A stretch of 64,000 nucleotides of DNA from a phage: NCBI GenBank assembly GCA_018175075.1, contig GCA_018175075.1_4100.1. One strand, 5' to 3'. Positions 15,075-53,970 of this stretch are shown in pieces (position 1 is the stretch's first letter; each line of letters starts with the position of its first letter). A program made the position numbers and the translations under genes. The notes beneath the pieces are model-generated. The model was not told the DNA's origin, searched no databases, and was given only the letters and a program-made list of their open reading frames with translations.

Positions 15075-15329
15075 ATGTTTGCGTTGCGTAATAAAAACAC
15101 TAAAGAATTATTATGTATTGATACCGTATGGGATTGTGCGGGATCAACTACAGTTCTTGAAGAAGGAACTGGATATTGCGTGTTTGTTGTTCATGATAGG
15201 AATGAACTCGAATTATTACTTGCTGAGTTCAATGCTGGTGGTAATCCTAACAGTACTGAATACCCTGAGATTATCAATCCAGCACCACCAGGCTCTTATG
15301 AAATTCTACAACTGTGGGAGTTGAAGTAA
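15075..15329 (+). CDS. hypothetical protein
   Basis: 84 aa, AGGAG RBS. Confidence 0.55.
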   Translation: MFALRNKNTKELLCIDTVWDCAGSTTVLEEGTGYCVFVVHDRNELELLLAEFNAGGNPNSTEYPEIINPAPPGSYEILQLWELK

Positions 15330-30037: not shown

Positions 30038-31228
30038 TTACAATTGTCTAGGTGTATCCAGTACATATCTATTTGTACGAGGACCACCATCATCATGCGT
30101 TCCGGTTGAATATATATTTTTCATATCAGCAGTTAGGAAAGTACGATACGAACCGCGATATATTTTAATTTTATCATACATAGAATATGTTATTCCTGAC
30201 GGCAATGGACATGCAGTAAATTTACCAATGGTAACATTAGAACCAACACCTAATGTACCAGCATAACCACTCGCATTTAAACCAGTTGCATATACACCTG
30301 TACTCGTAACTAGTATACTAGATTGTGATGCATATCCAGTATGGATTGAATAATAAGTTCCTGATGGTAATGTAGTACTATTATTCCCTAATACTGCTAG
30401 TGCTGTACTATTCGTAGTGTTATTACCCCATGCCCCATTATTAGCTAATCCACCAACTAGAAACTGACGTGCTCCTGTATTTGGATTCTCCACTAAAGCA
30501 CTGACAGCACCAAATGAACAAACAGTATATTGTAATGTTTTTGTATATGTGGTACTTGGCTTATACAAAGTATATTCATTAAATGGTGTCCATGTGGTAC
30601 TAGTACTTATGCCAGATGTACTACCACCAATATATAAATTATTTTGTGTATCAAAAAACATTGCACAGTAATTTGTTGACTGTATTTGTGCAATATCTAC
30701 ATCTGGTGTTACCGCTTTAACAAATGAACCATCTGATATTTGATAAGTAGTTCCTGTACCATCTGCGAATTGTCTAGCACTATTCCACCCTGTACTCCAT
30801 ATTGTATTATTATCCATTAAGAAAGTAAACCACGTAGTACCTGCATACATCTGTTTAATTGAAGTACTTGAACTTTGTGTGTACAAATTTTCAATATATT
30901 GGTTATAACTTAAAAATGATGTAGTACTAGTTTCTAAACCAATATGACTACCATATCCACAATAAAAATAATTTAAGTCATTATCTTGTACTAACAAAGT
31001 TCCTTGTGTCATCCAGCAATCTTTGACATTTTCTCTAATTAATGTCCACGACCTTACTGCATTATTATTTCCTCTACCAAACTTCCCATAACTATTACTG
31101 CCTCGTGCGTATAGTTGACCGTCGGTATAAAGTACAACAACCTCAGTATCAGTTGGTATTATTTTCTTAATTTGTAGTGGTACAGGCACAATATTCCCAT
31201 AATTCATCATTCTTGCAAAAGGTAACAT
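30038..31228 (-). CDS. RCC1-like beta-propeller repeat protein G8
   Basis: 396 aa, MLPFARMMNYGNIVP. Confidence 0.75.
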   Translation of the reverse strand: MLPFARMMNYGNIVPVPLQIKKIIPTDTEVVVLYTDGQLYARGSNSYGKFGRGNNNAVRSWTLIRENVKDCWMTQGTLLVQDNDLNYFYCGYGSHIGLETSTTSFLSYNQYIENLYTQSSSTSIKQMYAGTTWFTFLMDNNTIWSTGWNSARQFADGTGTTYQISDGSFVKAVTPDVDIAQIQSTNYCAMFFDTQNNLYIGGSTSGISTSTTWTPFNEYTLYKPSTTYTKTLQYTVCSFGAVSALVENPNTGARQFLVGGLANNGAWGNNTTNSTALAVLGNNSTTLPSGTYYSIHTGYASQSSILVTSTGVYATGLNASGYAGTLGVGSNVTIGKFTACPLPSGITYSMYDKIKIYRGSYRTFLTADMKNIYSTGTHDDGGPRTNRYVLDTPRQL

Positions 31229-31299
31229 AATTCCCCTCCTTATTCATTATACTATATTTAATACAAATAAGAAAGCCAGTATCAAGTACTGGCCTATAT
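31229..31299 (-). promoter_or_regulatory. array cassette: terminator hairpin, -10, SD
   Basis: hairpin 31275-31293. Confidence 0.5.
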
Positions 31300-32469
31300 T
31301 TAAACTGGCGAATCTAATATAAATTCTAAACTACTAATGCCACCATATGTGACATCTGTTCCCGTGCTATATACAAAATTACCATCAGTTATATAAGTTC
31401 GGTTATAACTACCTGCCATCTGTGACTTACTATAATCAAACCCATCAGGTACGATTGCTTTGGTATATACTAATGCATTAGTAGATGTACCAATACCTAA
31501 CATACCAGCTTGTGTAGATTGATTGTAGCCGCAACAATATATACCATCTGTTGTAGCAATAACTTGGTTATAATATGAAGTATTGTTAGCAATGCTTACT
31601 ACATCACCAGGTGGCATTAGTGATGCTGTTTGTACCTCAAATGCTCTATAATCTTTGAGAGAACCATCTTTCCCATCTGCTTGTGCACCAAATATTCTTG
31701 AACCACCATTTGCGATGATAGTTTTACCAGTGGGATCAGTGCCTATTGCCATTGCCATTGAAGTACCATTATTCACATAGTACTTTATATTAATTGTATT
31801 ACTTAAGCTGGTAGGAGCACCATAATATATATTATATAACTTACTTCCTGAACTTGTAACTGCATTGACTCTTCCTGTATAAAATAACCATCCTTGGTTT
31901 GTAACATAACCGTGCATTAAATTACTTGCAAACAATTTAACAGGTAATTGATTTGCTGCGGTAGGAACAGTACTTTTGACGAATCTACCAGAAACATGGT
32001 TAATTGTTGTCCCATCACCCAACTGACCATCCGACCCTACTCCAGTACTCCATATTGTTTGGTCTGATAGTAACACACTTGTAGTCTGATAACTAACGGC
32101 TATATCTAATATTGGTAATGTTAATGTATTGAATATAGGCATAGCAGATGTCCATATTGATACTCCTGACCCTTTCATACCAACAGTTGTTGAACTTCCA
32201 CTGTACCATATTTCATTATTGCTTTTCTTAACAACTATCGACGTGGCACCCATCCAAAAATCTTCAACACCAGAAGTACTAAAAGTCCATGTAGTAACAG
32301 TATTTTTGTGACCTAAACCCAAAATACCATATGCATTATCACCACGCACATATAAATCACCACTGTTTGTTAAAACAGCAACATTATAGTTGTTAGCAAG
32401 TATTTTTTTAATATTTGGTTTATCAGGTGCAATATTCCCGTACTTAAACATCCTCGCAAAAGGTAACAT
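31300..32469 (-). CDS. RCC1-like beta-propeller repeat protein G9
   Basis: 389 aa, MLPFARMFKYGNIAPD; motifs GQLGDG, GMLGIG. Confidence 0.75.
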   Translation of the reverse strand: MLPFARMFKYGNIAPDKPNIKKILANNYNVAVLTNSGDLYVRGDNAYGILGLGHKNTVTTWTFSTSGVEDFWMGATSIVVKKSNNEIWYSGSSTTVGMKGSGVSIWTSAMPIFNTLTLPILDIAVSYQTTSVLLSDQTIWSTGVGSDGQLGDGTTINHVSGRFVKSTVPTAANQLPVKLFASNLMHGYVTNQGWLFYTGRVNAVTSSGSKLYNIYYGAPTSLSNTINIKYYVNNGTSMAMAIGTDPTGKTIIANGGSRIFGAQADGKDGSLKDYRAFEVQTASLMPPGDVVSIANNTSYYNQVIATTDGIYCCGYNQSTQAGMLGIGTSTNALVYTKAIVPDGFDYSKSQMAGSYNRTYITDGNFVYSTGTDVTYGGISSLEFILDSPV

Positions 32470-32538
32470 ATTTCCTCCTTATTCATTATACTATATTTAA
32501 TACAAATAAGAATGCCAGTATCAAGTACTGGCATTATG
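32470..32538 (-). promoter_or_regulatory. array cassette: terminator hairpin, -10, SD
   Basis: hairpin 32514-32532. Confidence 0.5.
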
Positions 32539-33648
32539 TTATTTTGGTAAATCAATTTTAGTAAAGACTGCAACATCTGCACTTGCACCTGGAATGGCGT
32601 AATACGATCCAGTACTATATACATTCCCGTCTTTGGTTAATAATGATGTTAATCCGTCACTAAAAGCAACATCACTAATCTCACTAACTTCTACAGGTAA
32701 TTGTAAATTAGCAGCACTATAGATAGCACCCGTTTGAGAATTGTTTAATCCCAAACCACGGTTTCCCCCAATACCTTTCTGATATGCACTAGTTAATATA
32801 ATTTGCGTAGCCGTGCTTGTTGCCTCTGAATTTGTCATAAACAAAGGTGAATTATTAGGTAAAGTACTTACAGGAACTGCTTTGAATGTAGTTGAATCTG
32901 AACTAAGAAAGTTTGGAGTTGTACCACATGTGAAATATGATGTACCATTATAGTAATTGAGTGTATGTCCACCAATAGCTGCATCTATTACACCAGAACT
33001 ACGCAGTCCCCAAATGTTAACTTGTGTTCTGTTCCCTGTGCCATGTAATCCACGGTCATTCCACCCTGAACTATATAACTTATTATCTATGCTAATATAC
33101 ATACTATCATTAGGAGTAGACATAACTTTACGCACATTAGAAGCACATAGTGTTAATGTATATATTGATGAAGAACCAATCCCCAATACACCACGGTATC
33201 CATTAGCCCCAGCACCATAGAGTACTGAACTTGAACTTAGTACAAATATTACACCACTATTGCATACAATATTAGCAATTTGATTCACTGGTATTGTATT
33301 TGTAAACCACTCGGTTCTATCAACTAATGTAGTACTGTAAGAAGTAGTTGTAGAAGATGTGAACCAGTACGTTTGACCTGATGTCCATATCGTATTATCA
33401 TTTTTAATAATAACAAGTGTTCGTCCTCCAGTGAAAAAATTAGAAACATCTGCACTTACTAATATCCATGAAGATACCGTGTTGGTATTACCATTTCCAG
33501 ATTCACCACCTTGATTTCTGCCTATGTAATACAATTCATGTGAATCAGTCAATACGAATTGACCTTGAGTAGAAGCACCAACTTTAATTATATTTTTAGG
33601 ACCAGAGGTAATATTCCCATAATCAAATAGTCTTACAAAAGGTAACAT
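32539..33648 (-). CDS. RCC1-like beta-propeller repeat protein G10
   Basis: MLPFVRLFDYGNI; RBS only, no cassette (co-transcribed with G11). Confidence 0.7.
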   Translation of the reverse strand: MLPFVRLFDYGNITSGPKNIIKVGASTQGQFVLTDSHELYYIGRNQGGESGNGNTNTVSSWILVSADVSNFFTGGRTLVIIKNDNTIWTSGQTYWFTSSTTTSYSTTLVDRTEWFTNTIPVNQIANIVCNSGVIFVLSSSSVLYGAGANGYRGVLGIGSSSIYTLTLCASNVRKVMSTPNDSMYISIDNKLYSSGWNDRGLHGTGNRTQVNIWGLRSSGVIDAAIGGHTLNYYNGTSYFTCGTTPNFLSSDSTTFKAVPVSTLPNNSPLFMTNSEATSTATQIILTSAYQKGIGGNRGLGLNNSQTGAIYSAANLQLPVEVSEISDVAFSDGLTSLLTKDGNVYSTGSYYAIPGASADVAVFTKIDLPK

Positions 33649-33656
33649 ATTCCCTC

Positions 33657-34859
33657 CTATTGTTGCCATAACTGCGTTGGCATTAATGTTAGTGTAGTAA
33701 TACTATAAGTGCCATCAGGCAATCTACCACCATTACCATTCCAGCCACCACATGCATATAATTTATAATCTTTAGTAATTATTATGGTTCTGCTCCAATC
33801 TTTAGATGCCATAAGAACATTGTCATAACCACCACTTATTGCACTAAGATTAAAAATAGCCCAAGTCTTAACTAATGTATTAGTTCCATTACCTTCTTGA
33901 CCATATGAGTTAGGACCACTACTTCTAACATATGGTGCGTATTGTGCCATAGGTGAACCAATTGATGCATTTCCCATATTACTTGGACAAATAAAATTAC
34001 TGTACTTACTTACATCAACCGTGACCGATGTATTCCTAATTGGTGTTAGCTGATTTACTGATGTAGTCGTACCATTACCAGCTTGTCCAGTATTGTTAGA
34101 CCCACTATAATATACAGGCCCACCAGTAGTAAACCACCAAGTAACATTGTATGTAGTACTAATATGTTCTACATTACTAATCACGAATTTGTTCAAATAT
34201 ACAACAGAACTACCACCACATCCACTTTCACCAAAGTTATCCTTACCACAAAACCATGCATCTTTATTTGATTTAATATAGTGCGTTCCTTGTAATGAAC
34301 ATGCCATATCTATAACTTCACCCATATTAGTCATAACTGTTAGTGTAGGGATTGAATTTTGATTACCCGACCCACATTCACCATTAGTATTTTTTCCACA
34401 CGCAATTACTCTACCATCTGTTAATAATATTCTAGTACTTTCACCTATATATACACTCTTGATCATATTAGCCATTACGCCAATTTTATTAAATGAAGCA
34501 GTAACATCAGTCCATGTTCTCAAATAACCACTAACAGGTGTTGCATCTCCATAATCAGAAAATGCACCCACCGACCCAGTGTAGTATATTTTATTATCCA
34601 AATCAACCATCAATGAACCATGAACACCCAGCCAATAGGCTGCACAGTTACGTGCAAGTACAGTAAATGACGGAACTGCTGCTGAATTCCCAAGACCAAA
34701 TTGAGACATGTTATTACTACCATAACCATATAAAGTATTAGTTGGGCTATGTAGATACATACAGTTTGTATAATGTTGTTGTAAAACATCTGAGAACTCT
34801 ATAGGTTCTGGCCCTGGTGCAATATTACCGTACTTAACCATTCTAGCAAAAGGTAACAT
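33657..34859 (-). CDS. RCC1-like beta-propeller repeat protein G11
   Basis: 400 aa, MLPFARMVKYGNIAPGPEP. Confidence 0.75.
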   Translation of the reverse strand: MLPFARMVKYGNIAPGPEPIEFSDVLQQHYTNCMYLHSPTNTLYGYGSNNMSQFGLGNSAAVPSFTVLARNCAAYWLGVHGSLMVDLDNKIYYTGSVGAFSDYGDATPVSGYLRTWTDVTASFNKIGVMANMIKSVYIGESTRILLTDGRVIACGKNTNGECGSGNQNSIPTLTVMTNMGEVIDMACSLQGTHYIKSNKDAWFCGKDNFGESGCGGSSVVYLNKFVISNVEHISTTYNVTWWFTTGGPVYYSGSNNTGQAGNGTTTSVNQLTPIRNTSVTVDVSKYSNFICPSNMGNASIGSPMAQYAPYVRSSGPNSYGQEGNGTNTLVKTWAIFNLSAISGGYDNVLMASKDWSRTIIITKDYKLYACGGWNGNGGRLPDGTYSITTLTLMPTQLWQQ

Positions 34860-34931
34860 ATTTCCCTCCTTTATTCATTATATTATATTTAATCAAAAAT
34901 AAAAGCCAGTACTTGAGTACTGGCATATCAA
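34860..34931 (-). promoter_or_regulatory. array cassette: terminator hairpin, -10, SD
   Basis: hairpin 34905-34924. Confidence 0.5.
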
Positions 34932-36098
34932 TTACGAAAAACGTGGATCATCAAGAACAAACACGGTACTACTTGGACCACCTTGTGTGGTGACAGCACT
35001 AGTACTGTAAAGAAAGTTACCATCTGTCATATAAGTTCTACGATTCGTACAAATAACTCTTACTTTATTCATATCGATATCAGGATTAGGTAATGGACAT
35101 GAAGTATACACTGATACATCAGTACTTGTTCCTATTCCCAGCGTACCTTCATTTGTGGTTGAACCGCTATTCAACCCACTAGCATATATACCACTGCTTG
35201 TAATAACAAAAGTGGCGTAGAATGGAGAACCTTCACCTATATTTAATTTAGTTCCAGGTGGTTGTCTTGCCGCAGCAACCGCACCATATGCTTTCCCACC
35301 AGATGTGGCAAGATTACCAAGAGCACCATACTGTTGTTGTCCACCATTATACACTGTGTTAGTGCCATCACTGTTAGTGTGGATACCAATAGAATTATAG
35401 TTACTGTTGCTATATACTAAAGCGGCATTAGAAGTAACTGTATTTCGTGTATATACTTTATATTGTTGGGTAAAATTACCACTAGTGGACGTACCCTGTA
35501 CAGTTCCAGTGTAGTATATATATCCGTCTGTACCAATGAATGAGTGCATAACACTACCTGCAAAAATTTTTTCTGGAGTAACACCTGACGGTATTGTTGA
35601 TTGTACAAATCTACCCACTACATTTGTTGTTGTATTATTTCCCAATTGACCGGAGTCACCATAACCACTTGACCATATGGTATTGTTCTCAAGAAGAACA
35701 CTAATTGATAATCTTGATAAAGCTATTTCTTTAACATCACTTTCTAATGTATCAAAAAATGAAGTACAATTTGTCCAAGTGTTCACTACGCTAGAACTAA
35801 CACCAATTTGTTTATTATCACCAGAACTATAATAATTCCCATCATATGTTTGTATAAGTATAACAGAACCACCAACCCATACTTTATCAACTGAACCAAA
35901 CGTTCTTGTCCATGTGGTAACTATATCCCCGCTATTATTACCCAATCCAAAGCAACCACTACTATCTACGCCTCGTACATATAAATCTCCTGAAGTCATC
36001 AGAACTGCACAGAATGATTGTGCACCTTTAACATCTTTAATTGGCTCTGGTTCAGGTGCAACATTTCCATAATCAAACATTCTAACAAAAGGTAACAT
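34932..36098 (-). CDS. RCC1-like beta-propeller repeat protein G12 (first gene of array)
   Basis: MLPFVRMFDYGNVAPEPEP; motif GQLGNN. Confidence 0.75.
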   Translation of the reverse strand: MLPFVRMFDYGNVAPEPEPIKDVKGAQSFCAVLMTSGDLYVRGVDSSGCFGLGNNSGDIVTTWTRTFGSVDKVWVGGSVILIQTYDGNYYSSGDNKQIGVSSSVVNTWTNCTSFFDTLESDVKEIALSRLSISVLLENNTIWSSGYGDSGQLGNNTTTNVVGRFVQSTIPSGVTPEKIFAGSVMHSFIGTDGYIYYTGTVQGTSTSGNFTQQYKVYTRNTVTSNAALVYSNSNYNSIGIHTNSDGTNTVYNGGQQQYGALGNLATSGGKAYGAVAAARQPPGTKLNIGEGSPFYATFVITSSGIYASGLNSGSTTNEGTLGIGTSTDVSVYTSCPLPNPDIDMNKVRVICTNRRTYMTDGNFLYSTSAVTTQGGPSSTVFVLDDPRFS

Positions 36099-36200
36099 AT
36101 TTCCTCCTTTATTCATTATATCATATTTACCCCATAAACAAAACCCTTGACAACCTTCCAGTACTGGTGTACTATAGAAGGAATATAAGGAGAACTACAC
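36099..36200. promoter_or_regulatory. divergent promoter region
   Basis: minus side TATAAT + AAAGGAGG for G12; plus side TTGACA 36147-36152 /17/ TACTAT 36170-36175 ahead of family S. Confidence 0.45.
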
Positions 36201-41441: not shown

Positions 41442-41461
41442 CCACCAGCACAAGCTGGTGG
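41442..41461. repeat. inverted Chi-octamer hairpin
   Basis: CCACCAGC-ACAA-GCTGGTGG. Confidence 0.5.
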
Positions 41462-41775: not shown

Positions 41776-41994
41776 AAAATTTTATTTTGTTTTTTCCAAT
41801 AGTTCCCCTACCGCGTGGGGATAGTTTCCCCGCAGTATCTGGTGTTAGATTTTTCTGAATCTGGAATCATTATCTTATAAACTGGGGGCAATGTCAACGG
41901 CCTGGACGGATATTTTTAAAAATTTTTTCAGTACTGAATTTTGGGCGTAACTATGCACCCGGTGGGCTGGAGTCTTTCTCGACTTGATGGAACT

Positions 41995-43994: not shown

Positions 43995-44023
43995 TTGACT
44001 TATTTTGTCAGTACTGGCATAAT
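43995..44023 (+). promoter_or_regulatory. sigma70-like promoter TTGACT/17/CATAAT with no ORF downstream
   Basis: faces minus promoter 44139-44167 across an inverted-repeat element. Confidence 0.4.
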
Positions 44024-44039
44024 GTATTCATTGGCAGAT

Positions 44040-44135
44040 AAGCCGTAGCCCATAGGGTGCGGGAGTGTATCTATAGAAAAATTAGTTTAGTATAGTTACA
44101 ATTGTGCACCCGGTGGGTTAGCTGTTGTCATGGGG
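44040..44135. repeat. GGGTGC inverted-repeat element
   Basis: CCCATAGGGTGC .. GCACCCGGTGGG arms about 50 nt apart; related copies at ~41950, 42110-42180, 46520, 51365, 53020, 55365, 58625, 60890. Confidence 0.5.
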
Positions 44136-44138
44136 TAT

Positions 44139-44167
44139 ATTATGCCAGTACTGGATAGTGCTGTCAA
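44139..44167 (-). promoter_or_regulatory. minus-strand promoter TTGACA/17/CATAAT
   Basis: read as reverse complement; convergent with 43995 promoter. Confidence 0.4.
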
Positions 44168-45967: not shown

Positions 45968-46153
45968 ATGACAACATTATCTGAGGTTATCCGCGTTCAA
46001 GCTGCAAAGGCTGGAATGACTGTTATCAATGTAGGGATCAAGATTGAGATCTCCCCTAACGAGTTGCAAGGGATTCCCGATCCTACTAGCTGGGATCGTG
46101 CTGGGCGAATGATGCGTAATGCTTCATTACTGGACGGTACAAAATTTAATTAA
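45968..46153 (+). CDS. hypothetical protein
   Basis: 61 aa; CAGGAG RBS. Confidence 0.45.
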   Translation: MTTLSEVIRVQAAKAGMTVINVGIKIEISPNELQGIPDPTSWDRAGRMMRNASLLDGTKFN

Positions 46154-51435: not shown

Positions 51436-51495
51436 TTGCAAACTATCTCAATAGGCGTATAATGTTTTACATCGAAAGGGGAAACGGTTTCCCCT
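51436..51495 (+). promoter_or_regulatory. A-type promoter/stem-loop cassette
   Basis: TTGCAA/16/TATAAT + AGGGGAAAC-G-GTTTCCCCT. Confidence 0.55.
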
Positions 51496-52764: not shown

Positions 52765-52962
52765 ATGATTAGCATGAAATCAGTACAAAAACAAATAGAA
52801 ACATTATCAAAAATTAAACGTAAACAGTACTCGTTAGAATATACAATCAATGGTAACTATCATCTAATGAAAGAAAATAATTTTATAGTCATTGATGAAT
52901 CATTGCAAATCATTAGTATAGTACTGAAAGCATTAATTAATGATAGAAAAAAATTAAAATAA
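52765..52962 (+). CDS. hypothetical AT-rich small protein
   Basis: ATG 52765 (track used TTG 52759); weak RBS. Confidence 0.35.
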   Translation: MISMKSVQKQIETLSKIKRKQYSLEYTINGNYHLMKENNFIVIDESLQIISIVLKALINDRKKLK

Positions 52963-52966
52963 TCTA

Positions 52967-52995
52967 TTGACAATATCCTCCAGTACTGGCATAAT
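52967..52995 (+). promoter_or_regulatory. sigma70-like promoter TTGACA/17/CATAAT
   Basis: hexamers read directly. Confidence 0.45.
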
Positions 52996-53057
52996 ACTTA
53001 CATCAAGACGAGAACGTCACTAACCCATAGGGTGCACAAATGTAACTATATAACATC

Positions 53058-53130
53058 GATCAATAAATGATCAAAAAAGTACTGGATCAATTTAGCATAA
53101 GGCGTATAATTCTGATCAATTCTTGATCAA
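53058..53130. promoter_or_regulatory. cluster of five co-oriented GATCAA sites around a -10 box
   Basis: GATC at 53058, 53069, 53085, 53114, 53125; TATAAT 53104-53109. Confidence 0.4.
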
Positions 53131-53291
53131 AGGCAATATACGCAGTTGAATTTATATAGACAGTACAAAGGCGTTACTATCCGTGGTAATGCTGGTGGAT
53201 ATGTAGTATCATGTGGTTTGAATAAGATTAGCACTAGTAGTATTATTGTAGCATTACAGTACTATAGTATTTTTATAATGAGGTTAAAATA

Positions 53292-53549
53292 ATGGCAGTA
53301 GGATACGCGAAAGACGGGGCCGAACAAGACGAGATTAACGCAGTGATTCAGGCCGCCGTTAACCACGCTAGAAAGCAAATTAACGCACAAAGAGAATCAC
53401 TAGTACATTGCCTCGACTGCGGCGATAAAATCCCTGAGAATCGACGCCAGGCCGTTATAGGGTGCATGTATTGTATTACTTGCCAGGCGGATCATGATAG
53501 TACTTTTAAAAGAGATCCGCGTAATTGTTGGCATAGATCTATGAGATAA
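53292..53549 (+). CDS. DksA/TraR-family C4 zinc-finger protein
   Basis: CLDCGDKIPENRRQAVIGCMYC matches the TraR-type CxxC-IPE-RR-CxxC finger. Confidence 0.7.
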   Translation: MAVGYAKDGAEQDEINAVIQAAVNHARKQINAQRESLVHCLDCGDKIPENRRQAVIGCMYCITCQADHDSTFKRDPRNCWHRSMR

Positions 53550-53556
53550 AAAGTAA

Positions 53557-53584
53557 TTGACAGTACTGAAAGATAGTGTATAAT
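53557..53584 (+). promoter_or_regulatory. sigma70-like promoter TTGACA/16/TATAAT
   Basis: hexamers read directly. Confidence 0.5.
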
Positions 53585-53613
53585 GTTTTATATCTTAAAT
53601 GAGGATAGAAATC

Positions 53614-53970
53614 ATGGGAATACAACATATCACGCGTACTACTGACAATGGCGAGATCACTGGTTATCAGGTACAGGGCAAAGTAGCACAATTGCAGTAC
53701 TGGTTTGTTAAACGTGGAATCATTGCACCGGATCTTGATTATGACCGTGTTGCTTTCATTGATTCTCTTTATGTTGATCCTGATAGTCGGGGCAATGGTG
53801 AAGGTAACGAATTAATGAATGCCTTTATCGATGCCGCCGATGATTCAGATTGTATCATCTTAGAATGCGATACGGGAGAAGATAACGCCTTTAATCTTAA
53901 AGAATGGTACGAAGGTTTCGGATTCGAGGTATTGATAGATAGTGAATATCCTATCATGATTTTATCATAG
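53614..53970 (+). CDS. putative GNAT-family acetyltransferase
   Basis: IDSLYVDPDSRGNGEGNELMNAF matches the acetyl-CoA-binding R..G.G motif; ATG 53614 with GAGGA RBS. Confidence 0.5.
   Translation: MGIQHITRTTDNGEITGYQVQGKVAQLQYWFVKRGIIAPDLDYDRVAFIDSLYVDPDSRGNGEGNELMNAFIDAADDSDCIILECDTGEDNAFNLKEWYEGFGFEVLIDSEYPIMILS

Follow-up and report, generated by a model that had tools for sequence, protein, structure and literature searches.

The GATC cluster and its cassette

We analyzed a 64,000-nucleotide stretch of phage DNA (contig GCA_018175075.1_4100.1, hereafter the window), and in it a cluster of GATC sites at positions 53058-53128 that lies upstream of a 48-codon gene and of a DksA-like zinc-finger gene. 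The 1.4-kb region around this locus is 98% identical to the Asteriusvirus phages JNE01, Ecwhy_1 and fEgEco12 and 91% identical to 121Q, and on this identity we assign the window to Asteriusvirus, the 121Q/PBECO4-like jumbo coliphages with genomes of ~350 kb. In fEgEco12, whose physical ends are known and which carries direct terminal repeats of 20,993 bp (PMC13070987), the locus maps ~11.2 kb from the left end, i.e. in the middle of the terminal repeat, and its surroundings there form an array of small early genes, each with its own sigma-70 promoter.

The cluster is part of a 330-bp cassette that holds a strong promoter (P1), a leader box, the GATC sites with a second, predicted weak promoter (P2), and the 48-codon gene. 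The cassette is bounded by two direct copies of the 10-bp repeat TTAAAATAAT on the + strand, the left one (52954-52963) including the stop codon of an upstream 67-amino-acid gene and the right one (53284-53293) forming the cassette end. P1 (52967-52995, + strand; predicted start ~53002) is a strong sigma-70 promoter of the form TTGACA-17-CATAAT, its -10 extended by a TG; it scores 11/12 with the TG in a promoter scan and shows little or no variation among 8 Asteriusvirus sequences. It lies ~90 bp upstream of the cluster, and no terminator is predicted between it and the downstream genes.

P2 (53083-53110, + strand; predicted start ~53117) has the form TGGATC-16-TATAAT. A sequence-only reading of this DNA had placed its -10 box at 53104 and had noted that no good -35 accompanies it; the box is present, one base further on (53105-53110), and the -35 is indeed poor, TGGATC scoring 3/6 at a spacer of 16, and a consensus promoter scan of the window did not call P2. 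The -10 is perfect and invariant in both alleles of the region, and the -35 match rises from 3/6 in the window to 4/6 in PBECO4 and 5-6/6 in Erwinia-type phages. Placed in register by their -10 boxes, three generic early promoters of the window read aaaaagtacTTGCA(A/T)-16-TATAAT and the P2 region reads aaaaagtacTGGATC-16-TATAAT; P2 matches base for base the early promoters aaaaagtacTTGCAA-16-TATAAT at 51458, 55450 and 58721, and this alignment makes it a member of the phage early-promoter family. At P2, a GATC site stands in for the -35, and the upstream GATC pair, O1, stands in for the upstream AGTACT/UP-like segment.

The 48-codon gene (53146-53292, + strand; gp293 of 121Q, phrog_38664) begins with a TTG codon behind a weak Shine-Dalgarno sequence (AAAGG, 53130-53134), and its stop codon shares bases with the ATG at which the DksA-like gene begins. 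PBECO4, UB, JP4 and the Salmonella SD phages carry a second allele, with 78% DNA and 62.5% protein identity to the first, and several alleles start with TTG or GTG. Because the frame is kept between alleles, the ratio of nonsynonymous to synonymous substitution rates (dN/dS) is 0.13-0.30, third codon positions hold 19 of the 36 differences, and the product matches phrog_38664 (3e-32), we take this open reading frame to be a real gene. Another open reading frame, annotated over the cluster on the reverse strand in JP4 and SD-2_S15, was rejected as spurious, as it is not conserved in the window allele. The 48-residue protein is basic, with a net charge of ~+6 and no acidic residue in the window copy, and its AlphaFold2 (AF2) model (predicted local distance difference test, pLDDT, 90) has four strands plus a helix. 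A Foldseek search with this model returned nothing significant, and Pfam gave just a 0.083 match to the Rrf2 wing. The protein family is narrow (8 clusters among 5.8 billion proteins), and scans of viral and metagenome contigs for distant homologues returned 121Q- and PBECO4-type alleles only.

Phage ph0011 misses exactly positions 52964-53293, with a single TTAAAATAAT copy at the junction and the DksA-like gene adjoining the upstream gene, and the same gap is seen in UE-S1 and phAPEC6, where presence or absence was judged from query coverage. Read from these genomes, the cassette is mobile and dispensable. Used as a blastn query, a 124-bp region of the locus had no match in 5,426 E. coli genomes.

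The cluster is built from GATC pairs one helical turn apart

The five co-oriented GATCAA sites that the sequence-only reading had described as direct repeats are all present on the + strand, at 53058, 53069, 53085, 53114 and 53125, and GATCAA occurs once more on the - strand at 53123, where positions 53123-53130 form the palindrome TTGATCAA. The sites do recur in one orientation, but their make-up is that of palindromic ATTGATCAAT centres, arranged as 11-bp pairs plus one single site. The first pair, O1 (GATCAATAAATGATC, 53058-53072), is a 15-bp GATC-N7-GATC near-palindrome at -59/-48 of P2, in the position of an UP element, and the second, O2 (GATCAATTCTTGATC, 53114-53128), is another 15-bp GATC-N7-GATC that spans the predicted P2 start (-3 to +12); neither is assigned a strand. 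The fifth GATC (53085-53088) lies within the -35 of P2, and the five sites stand at -59, -48, -32, -3 and +9 relative to the -10 of this promoter.

Window-wide, neither GATCAA (29 observed vs 36 expected) nor GATC (145 vs 157) is enriched. The cluster is the densest GATC spot of the window, with a probability of ~0.003 for at least five GATC in 72 bp under uniform placement and an expected number of ~4e-8 for five co-oriented GATCAA within 73 bp, and repeat analysis and pattern searches identified O1 and O2 as the sole GATC-N7-GATC units in the 64-kb window. In the complete 121Q genome (348 kb), which we used for genome-wide counts, at least four GATC in 80 bp are found solely at the homologous cluster, and GATC-N7-GATC occurs four times, two of them at the cluster. 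The bases around the GATCs are also biased: 25 distinct site sequences give the palindromic consensus ATTGATCAAT, with T at -1 in 22/25, A at +1 in 22/25 and A at +2 in 21/25, and since these sites come from related sequences, nominal p-values are over-optimistic. Another GATC cluster of the window, at 46036-46094, falls in coding sequence.

O1 is conserved across two phage lineages

Homologues of the small protein, 31-38% identical, occur in Erwinia phage Hallingskeid and in eight metagenomic relatives, where the module runs in the order promoter, box, GATC-N7-GATC, promoter TTGAC(T/A)-17-AATAAT, and a second 11-bp pair flanking the -10. We compared 14 module sequences from the two lineages (E. 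coli-type and Erwinia-type), measuring O1 spacing in 10 and judging it by inspection in 4 variants fetched later. The O1 GATCs lie at +34/+45 from the box in all 10 measured sequences, and in the same place in the other 4; the two GATCs and their 11-bp spacing are invariant in the whole set, and O1 sits at -59/-48 of P2 in both lineages, over inner seven bases that vary (AATAAAT, AAGAAAT, AATAAGT, AATTATT, AAAAAAT). Across these sequences, O1 is the invariant core of the cluster.

The second pair is found at three positions, -3/+9 in the window/121Q type, -43/-32 in the PBECO4 type and -17/-6 in the Erwinia type, and every pair in every sequence has the same 11-bp spacing, which corresponds to one helical turn. 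In the Erwinia lineage the DNA between the pairs is freely variable, with the GATCs, the -35 and the -10 constant, and the P2 equivalent TTGAC(T/A)-17-AATAAT is kept across variable spacers. Judged by these counts and comparisons, the cluster represents a genuine regulatory architecture that is conserved and has no equal elsewhere in the genome.

Elsewhere in 121Q, a second conserved 11-bp GATC pair, CATCGATCAAAAAATGATC, occupies positions 215,904-215,935 (L051:15904-15935), intergenic upstream of gp467, where it just precedes a late-promoter-like CTAAATA/GGTAAATA. This gp467 pair is kept, with a variable centre, in phAPEC6 (L054), PBECO4 (L058) and fEgEco12 (L055), making four lineages with 121Q; JNE01 has lost it, and ph0011 is without it.

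A search of IMG/VR with a two-unit GATC pattern returned 22 loci, none of them like the module, most of them collagen-like coding repeats (GSKGDQG) and a few of them unrelated GATC arrays. Unrelated IMG/VR contigs carry non-coding GATC arrays with 9-11-bp periodicity (L019:4023-4091, L021:7624-7772, L023:2817-2871 and L036:1374-1448), in one of which TTGATCAAAAAATGATCAGATTGATC is repeated and ends at TATAAT; these arrays suggest that periodic GATC sites near promoters or origins recur in other phages. Several independently assembled metagenomic contigs of Erwinia-type phages, L013, L014 and L015 (from three samples) and L017, end or begin within 15-50 bp of the module box or P1, which probably reflects an assembly break at the repeated promoter/box sequence, the alternative being a physical end.

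A methylation-gated operator as a tentative model

We tentatively favor, with rather less than even confidence, a reading in which the cluster is a Dam-methylation-gated, paired-GATC operator of the weak early promoter P2. The functional unit would be a pair of GATCs exactly 11 bp, one helical turn, apart, and the paired sites would tie the output of P2, as well as read-through from P1, to the Dam-methylation state of the phage DNA. A pair-reading protein would occupy O1 and O2 in one methylation state only, and its occupancy would turn the cassette off or on in step with replication and re-methylation of the DNA. Host SeqA, the known example of a protein acting on hemimethylated DNA, is a candidate reader, and a factor whose binding is blocked by methylation is an alternative one. 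The sequences show the architecture, its conservation, its uniqueness in the genome and a Dam-family methylase gene in the phage; methylation of the sites, protein binding to them and the direction of the effect are inferred.

A constant GATC and one-turn spacing over variable inner bases are what a methylation-linked mechanism predicts. The hosts of these phages (Escherichia, Salmonella and Erwinia) all belong to the Dam/SeqA/MutH group of Enterobacterales. The product of 121Q gp417 is a predicted Dam-family methylase (PF05869, 110.8 bits), and phAPEC6 has been reported to carry an N6-adenine methylase gene (PMC7247149). Moreover, phAPEC6 keeps the gp467 pair without having the cassette (by query coverage), which argues for a pair reader common to these phages or their hosts. 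Control by Dam methylation, SeqA-like binding or an activator bound to the repeats had been proposed in the sequence-only reading. Its view of the cluster as a regulatory feature over a -10 box with a weak -35 is supported, and control linked to Dam, SeqA or another bound factor is a reasonable class of explanation, given that the GATC tetranucleotides and the 11-bp spacing are what is conserved, but the gene concerned is the 48-codon one.

Several observations weigh against such an operator. The bases flanking GATC are conserved too (consensus ATTGATCAAT), and neither SeqA nor Dam is known to need the flanking T/A bases; such conservation would be expected of a sequence-specific protein or of Fis-like shape readout. 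The other early promoters in the window carry no such sites, which argues against a general timing device. Finally, one half of O2 reads AATC in place of GATC in variant L044, and the recombinant allele L041 is without O2 and retains just three GATCs, at -59, -48 and -32.

A bolder version, which we consider decidedly unlikely, would make the cassette a self-contained methylation-state sensor, with the 48-residue, AP2-like protein as a minimal methylation-dependent reader of paired GATCs. If it were true, the promoter of the protein, and the second pair before a late-type gene, would switch as parental DNA gives way to newly replicated and then to re-methylated DNA; the protein would represent a new and very small class of methylation-reading proteins, and a replication-coupled timer outside SeqA and OxyR. 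Gene timing is almost unstudied in Rak2/Asteriusvirus-type jumbo phages, whose small early genes number in the hundreds and for the most part lack characterisation. Here, a compact, conserved and dispensable cassette comes with a cis-element (the paired GATCs at fixed promoter positions), a candidate trans-factor and a Dam-family methylase encoded by the phage, which makes the idea of adenine methylation state as a clock of a virulent phage directly testable.

Alternative explanations for the cluster

The conserved flanks are accommodated if the ATTGATCAAT sites are bound by the basic 48-residue protein itself, either dimeric or as monomers in tandem, which thereby represses P2 and blocks read-through from P1; GATC would then merely be part of the recognition sequence, with methylation sensitivity a possible bonus. 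We consider such autoregulation somewhat unlikely. The sites and the small gene are always co-inherited, the window holds no GATC-containing ATTGATCAAT-type site outside the cassette, the flanks are conserved as a 10-bp palindrome, and the protein has a net charge of ~+6, with no acidic residue in the window copy. The gene has a weak -35, a weak Shine-Dalgarno sequence and, in several alleles, a TTG/GTG start, expression signals that typify regulators made in small amounts. However, 48 residues are very few for a sequence-specific dimeric regulator, and the predicted topology is a common small one for which Foldseek found nothing significant and Pfam only the 0.083 Rrf2-wing match. The small protein is also not the sole reader if the gp467 pair is to be explained, since phAPEC6 keeps that pair without the cassette (by query coverage) and JNE01 has the cassette and has lost the pair. 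The host protein Fis would account for the same flanks in another way, each GATCA-N5-TGATC being a high-affinity Fis site that ties the promoter to the growth state of the host, with Dam interference optional. High-affinity Fis sites have a 15-bp core with G at -7 and C at +7, pyrimidine-purine (Y-R) steps at +/-3-4, an A/T-rich centre, and T/A at +/-8 (PMC4784862), and, compared by eye with these published features, the units (tGATCA-N5-TGATCa) show every one of them, including the Y-R steps C-A and T-G. Fis binding would thus explain the conserved T before and A after GATC as well as the fixed 11-bp spacing, and it fits with O1 taking the place of the UP-element region of P2. We nevertheless rate it as unlikely, because Fis leaves positions -6/-5 unconstrained, yet the A and T of GATC are invariant there; because the lone GATC in the -35 lies outside any 15-bp unit; and because the centre, A/T-only in O1 of the window (ATAAA), contains C in O2 and G in about half of the Erwinia-type O1 variants, bases that can strongly lower Fis affinity at the centre (PMC3711457).

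Two further explanations dispense with a DNA-binding protein. The cluster could be an AT-rich, UP-like region with no dedicated function, produced by a local 27-nt duplication and carried along with a recently exchanged cassette: a 27-nt direct repeat (53049-53075/53105-53131, 74% identity) accounts for all but one of the five sites, the cassette itself is dispensable as well as mobile, and many of the sequences are close kin, so that site counts overstate independence. This is improbable in view of the comparison between lineages, in which O1 and the box are almost invariant while the coding part falls to 31-38% protein identity, the Erwinia-lineage DNA between the pairs varies around fixed GATCs, -35 and -10, and the second pair has arisen anew at three positions, with the 11-bp spacing kept each time. 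Alternatively, the repeats could act as RNA, with a GAUC-repeat hairpin in the 143-nt leader of the P1 transcript controlling translation of the small gene or mRNA stability. The arms 53058-53076 and 53110-53128 are 84% complementary, and the leader folds better than its shuffles (z of -2.5 in the window and -2.1 in Hallingskeid), but palindromic DNA sites fold by construction, the PBECO4 allele is without O2 and lacks the long-range pairing, a consensus fold of 10 sequences keeps trivial invariant local hairpins with no covariation, and there is no Rfam match, all of which leave this explanation very improbable. A replication origin or a pac site was rejected, since phages can do without the cassette and its position within the terminal repeat is central.

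Comparison with known methylation-dependent systems

The methylation-gated operator that we favor has close parallels. Among switches with paired GATCs, which also include agn43, opvAB and Mu mom, the gtr promoter of P22 carries two GATC pairs whose methylation controls OxyR binding (PMC2909390). As in the present cassette, the pairs are placed around or upstream of a phage-borne sigma-70 promoter, with one GATC site touching the -35; in gtr, whether the protein is bound, and hence how active the promoter is, depends on methylation (PMC2909390). The pairs of gtr are spaced by 13 bp and fall within OxyR half-sites, whereas the pairs described here are 11 bp apart, and OxyR itself was rejected as the reader, since its half-site ATAGxTxxxAxCTAT (PMC2909390), compared by eye, is unmatched by GATCAAT-N-ATTGATC. 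Unlike in gtr, one pair here is at -59/-48 and another lies over the start site. Moreover, gtr is a heritable ON/OFF switch of a lysogen, while the gene here is an early gene of a virulent jumbo phage; the theme of a GATC-decorated, methylation-sensitive promoter is already known, and it would here extend to such a phage.

SeqA dimers on hemimethylated DNA require that two or more GATCs, spaced by about one helical turn, share a face of the helix. The same geometry, in AT-rich context, is present here as at the SeqA targets oriC, the dnaA promoter and the lambda pR region. SeqA needs GATC only, however, and here the flanks are conserved as well, and a phage Dam-family methylase would shorten the hemimethylated period, unlike at those targets. 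As for factors whose binding is blocked by methylation, Weinreich and Reznikoff reportedly described in 1992 such an effect on Fis at the IS50 inside end.

In the pac site of phage P1, clusters of TGATCA/G hexamers with ~11-12 bp spacing form two groups and act in a Dam-methylation-dependent manner. The present cluster differs in overlying a promoter and in being missing from some members of the genus (ph0011), and the locus lies ~11 kb inside a fixed 21-kb terminal repeat and not at a cleavage site (PMC13070987). As a cassette, the locus invites another comparison. T4-type phages shuffle small early genes as modular, promoter-early stem-loop style cassettes. A promoter and a small gene gained or lost as a unit between short repeats are common to both, but here the boundaries are a 10-bp repeat derived from two gene 3' ends, and a second, GATC-decorated promoter and a leader box are present.

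A repeated promoter-proximal leader box

Between P1 and the GATC cluster lies the leader box element (53007-53044, + strand), which consists of a 5' hairpin, GACG-AGAA-CGTC (53007-53018), and an invariant 25-nt box, CTAACCCATAGGGTGCACAAATGTA (53020-53044), containing a small hairpin, ACCC-ATA-GGGT. E. coli-type and Erwinia-type phages are identical at 24 of the 25 box positions, next to a protein that is 31-38% identical. The element is one copy of a repeated promoter-proximal element: its 18-nt core, with up to 3 mismatches, matches 6 times in the window vs 0.06 expected, and a looser 12-nt core pattern gives ~10 promoter-proximal copies, at 41966(-), 42181(-), 44049(+), 44117(-), 46538(-), 51369(+), 53024(+), 55359(+), 58632(+) and 60891(+). 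Further copies are present in contigs L009, L012, L013, L016 and L017 and at 136.5-153.9 kb of 121Q, a genome with 13 copies in all, 10 of them in the terminal-repeat region; a search of IMG/VR for the leader box found 121Q alone.

Across copies, a strong sigma-70 promoter is followed, ~22-28 nt past its -10, by the near-invariant box CCCAYMGGGTGC. The 5' hairpin has 8 different stem sequences, among them TGGC/GCCG, TGAG/CTCA, GACG/CGTC, CGC/GCG, AGTC/GACT, AGCA/TGCT and TAG/CTA, and a purine-rich loop. Rfam searches of the locus, the whole window and the 41.8-46.7 kb region gave nothing above noise. The box may act as a 5' leader RNA, in nut/put-like antitermination, stability or processing, or it may be a DNA site.

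Two sets of copies stand out from the rest. The - strand copy at 46570-46465 extends from a promoter of its own as far as an intrinsic terminator (GGGGAGTTATTATCTCCCC followed by a T-run) and is free of open reading frames; by its layout it looks like a small RNA gene of ~100 nt. At 44021-44145, two box units with their own promoters, one on each strand, are convergent and overlapping, an arrangement that suggests a sense/antisense pair at 44.0-44.15 kb.

The DksA-like and GNAT genes are independent neighbors

The gene that follows the cassette (53292-53549, + strand) encodes a DksA/TraR-family C4 zinc-finger protein (PF01258, 36.4 bits vs a cut-off of 24.9) with the motif CLDC...CMYC. Its closest solved relatives are E. 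coli YbiI (2kgo, E 1.2e-11) and then TraR (1.6e-6). DksA and TraR reach the RNA polymerase active site with an acidic DxxDxA tip. The N-terminus of the present protein, KDGAEQDEINA, is acidic, but the exact DxxDxA is not seen in it, and the TraR alignment begins only at residue 18; RNA polymerase binding is taken here, for want of that exact tip, as an assumption. Downstream, a GNAT cassette (53557-53970, + strand) comprises a promoter TTGACA-16-TATAAT at 53557-53584, scoring 12/12, and a gene at 53614-53970 that was rightly predicted to encode a GNAT acetyltransferase (PF00583, Acetyltransf_1, 37.2 bits vs a cut-off of 20.7).

The sequence-only reading had taken the cluster as the control region of the zinc-finger gene and had joined both genes to it as a host-transcription-modulation module. 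The family assignment of the zinc-finger gene held, but the conserved 48-codon gene comes first and travels with the cluster, which removes the proposed control relationship, and the DksA-like gene, the GNAT gene and the GATC cassette prove to be independent cassettes. Thus ph0011 has the DksA-like and GNAT genes and no cluster, while PBECO4 and the Salmonella SD phages combine the cluster with a DksA-like gene (present but unannotated in PBECO4) and are without a GNAT gene. In Erwinia-type phages, the cluster and the small gene occur with no DksA or GNAT homologue within the fetched flanks, which extend 1.5-2.5 kb per side, contig permitting. The annotation is corrected accordingly, with the DksA/YbiI-like and GNAT genes standing apart from any repeat-controlled module.

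Translational coupling of the DksA-like gene to the 48-codon gene would still have it expressed from both P1 and P2, and, with the strong P1 upstream and free of intervening terminators, its transcription would not rely on P2 alone. That linkage is a chance outcome of how the cassettes are ordered.

Chi sites and other features of the window

Chi (GCTGGTGG) is enriched more than 20-fold in the window (15 sites vs 0.66 expected, at 15234, 29285, 29543, 29798, 41442, 41454, 48360, 48422, 52681, 53191, 54142, 55390, 57738, 59146 and 60949), and 121Q has 18 on the + strand and 11 on the - strand vs ~1.1 expected per strand. All eight Chi sites at 48.4-61 kb, in the terminal repeat, are on the + strand, oriented against RecBCD entering from the right end, and the sites at 41442/41454 and 48360/48422 form inverted pairs. 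Several lie directly 3' of box elements, in Erwinia-type contigs too, and one lies within the 48-codon gene.

The palindrome CAGTACTG occurs 66 times in the window vs 1.2 expected (for example at 52981, 53561 and 53988) and 194 times in 121Q. Most often it sits in the promoter spacer, immediately before the -10, or else ~57 bp ahead of early promoters; at P2, it is the more distant of these copies that the GATC pair O1 supplants. The palindrome may be a factor binding site or an element of promoter architecture.

On the - strand, 21924-36116 holds ~10 paralogous genes of 250-410 aa with RCC1-like repeats (PF25390/PF00415), corresponding to 121Q gp234-248, whose annotation is 'regulator of chromosome condensation'. 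Within this gene array fall three Chi sites of the - strand (29285-29798).

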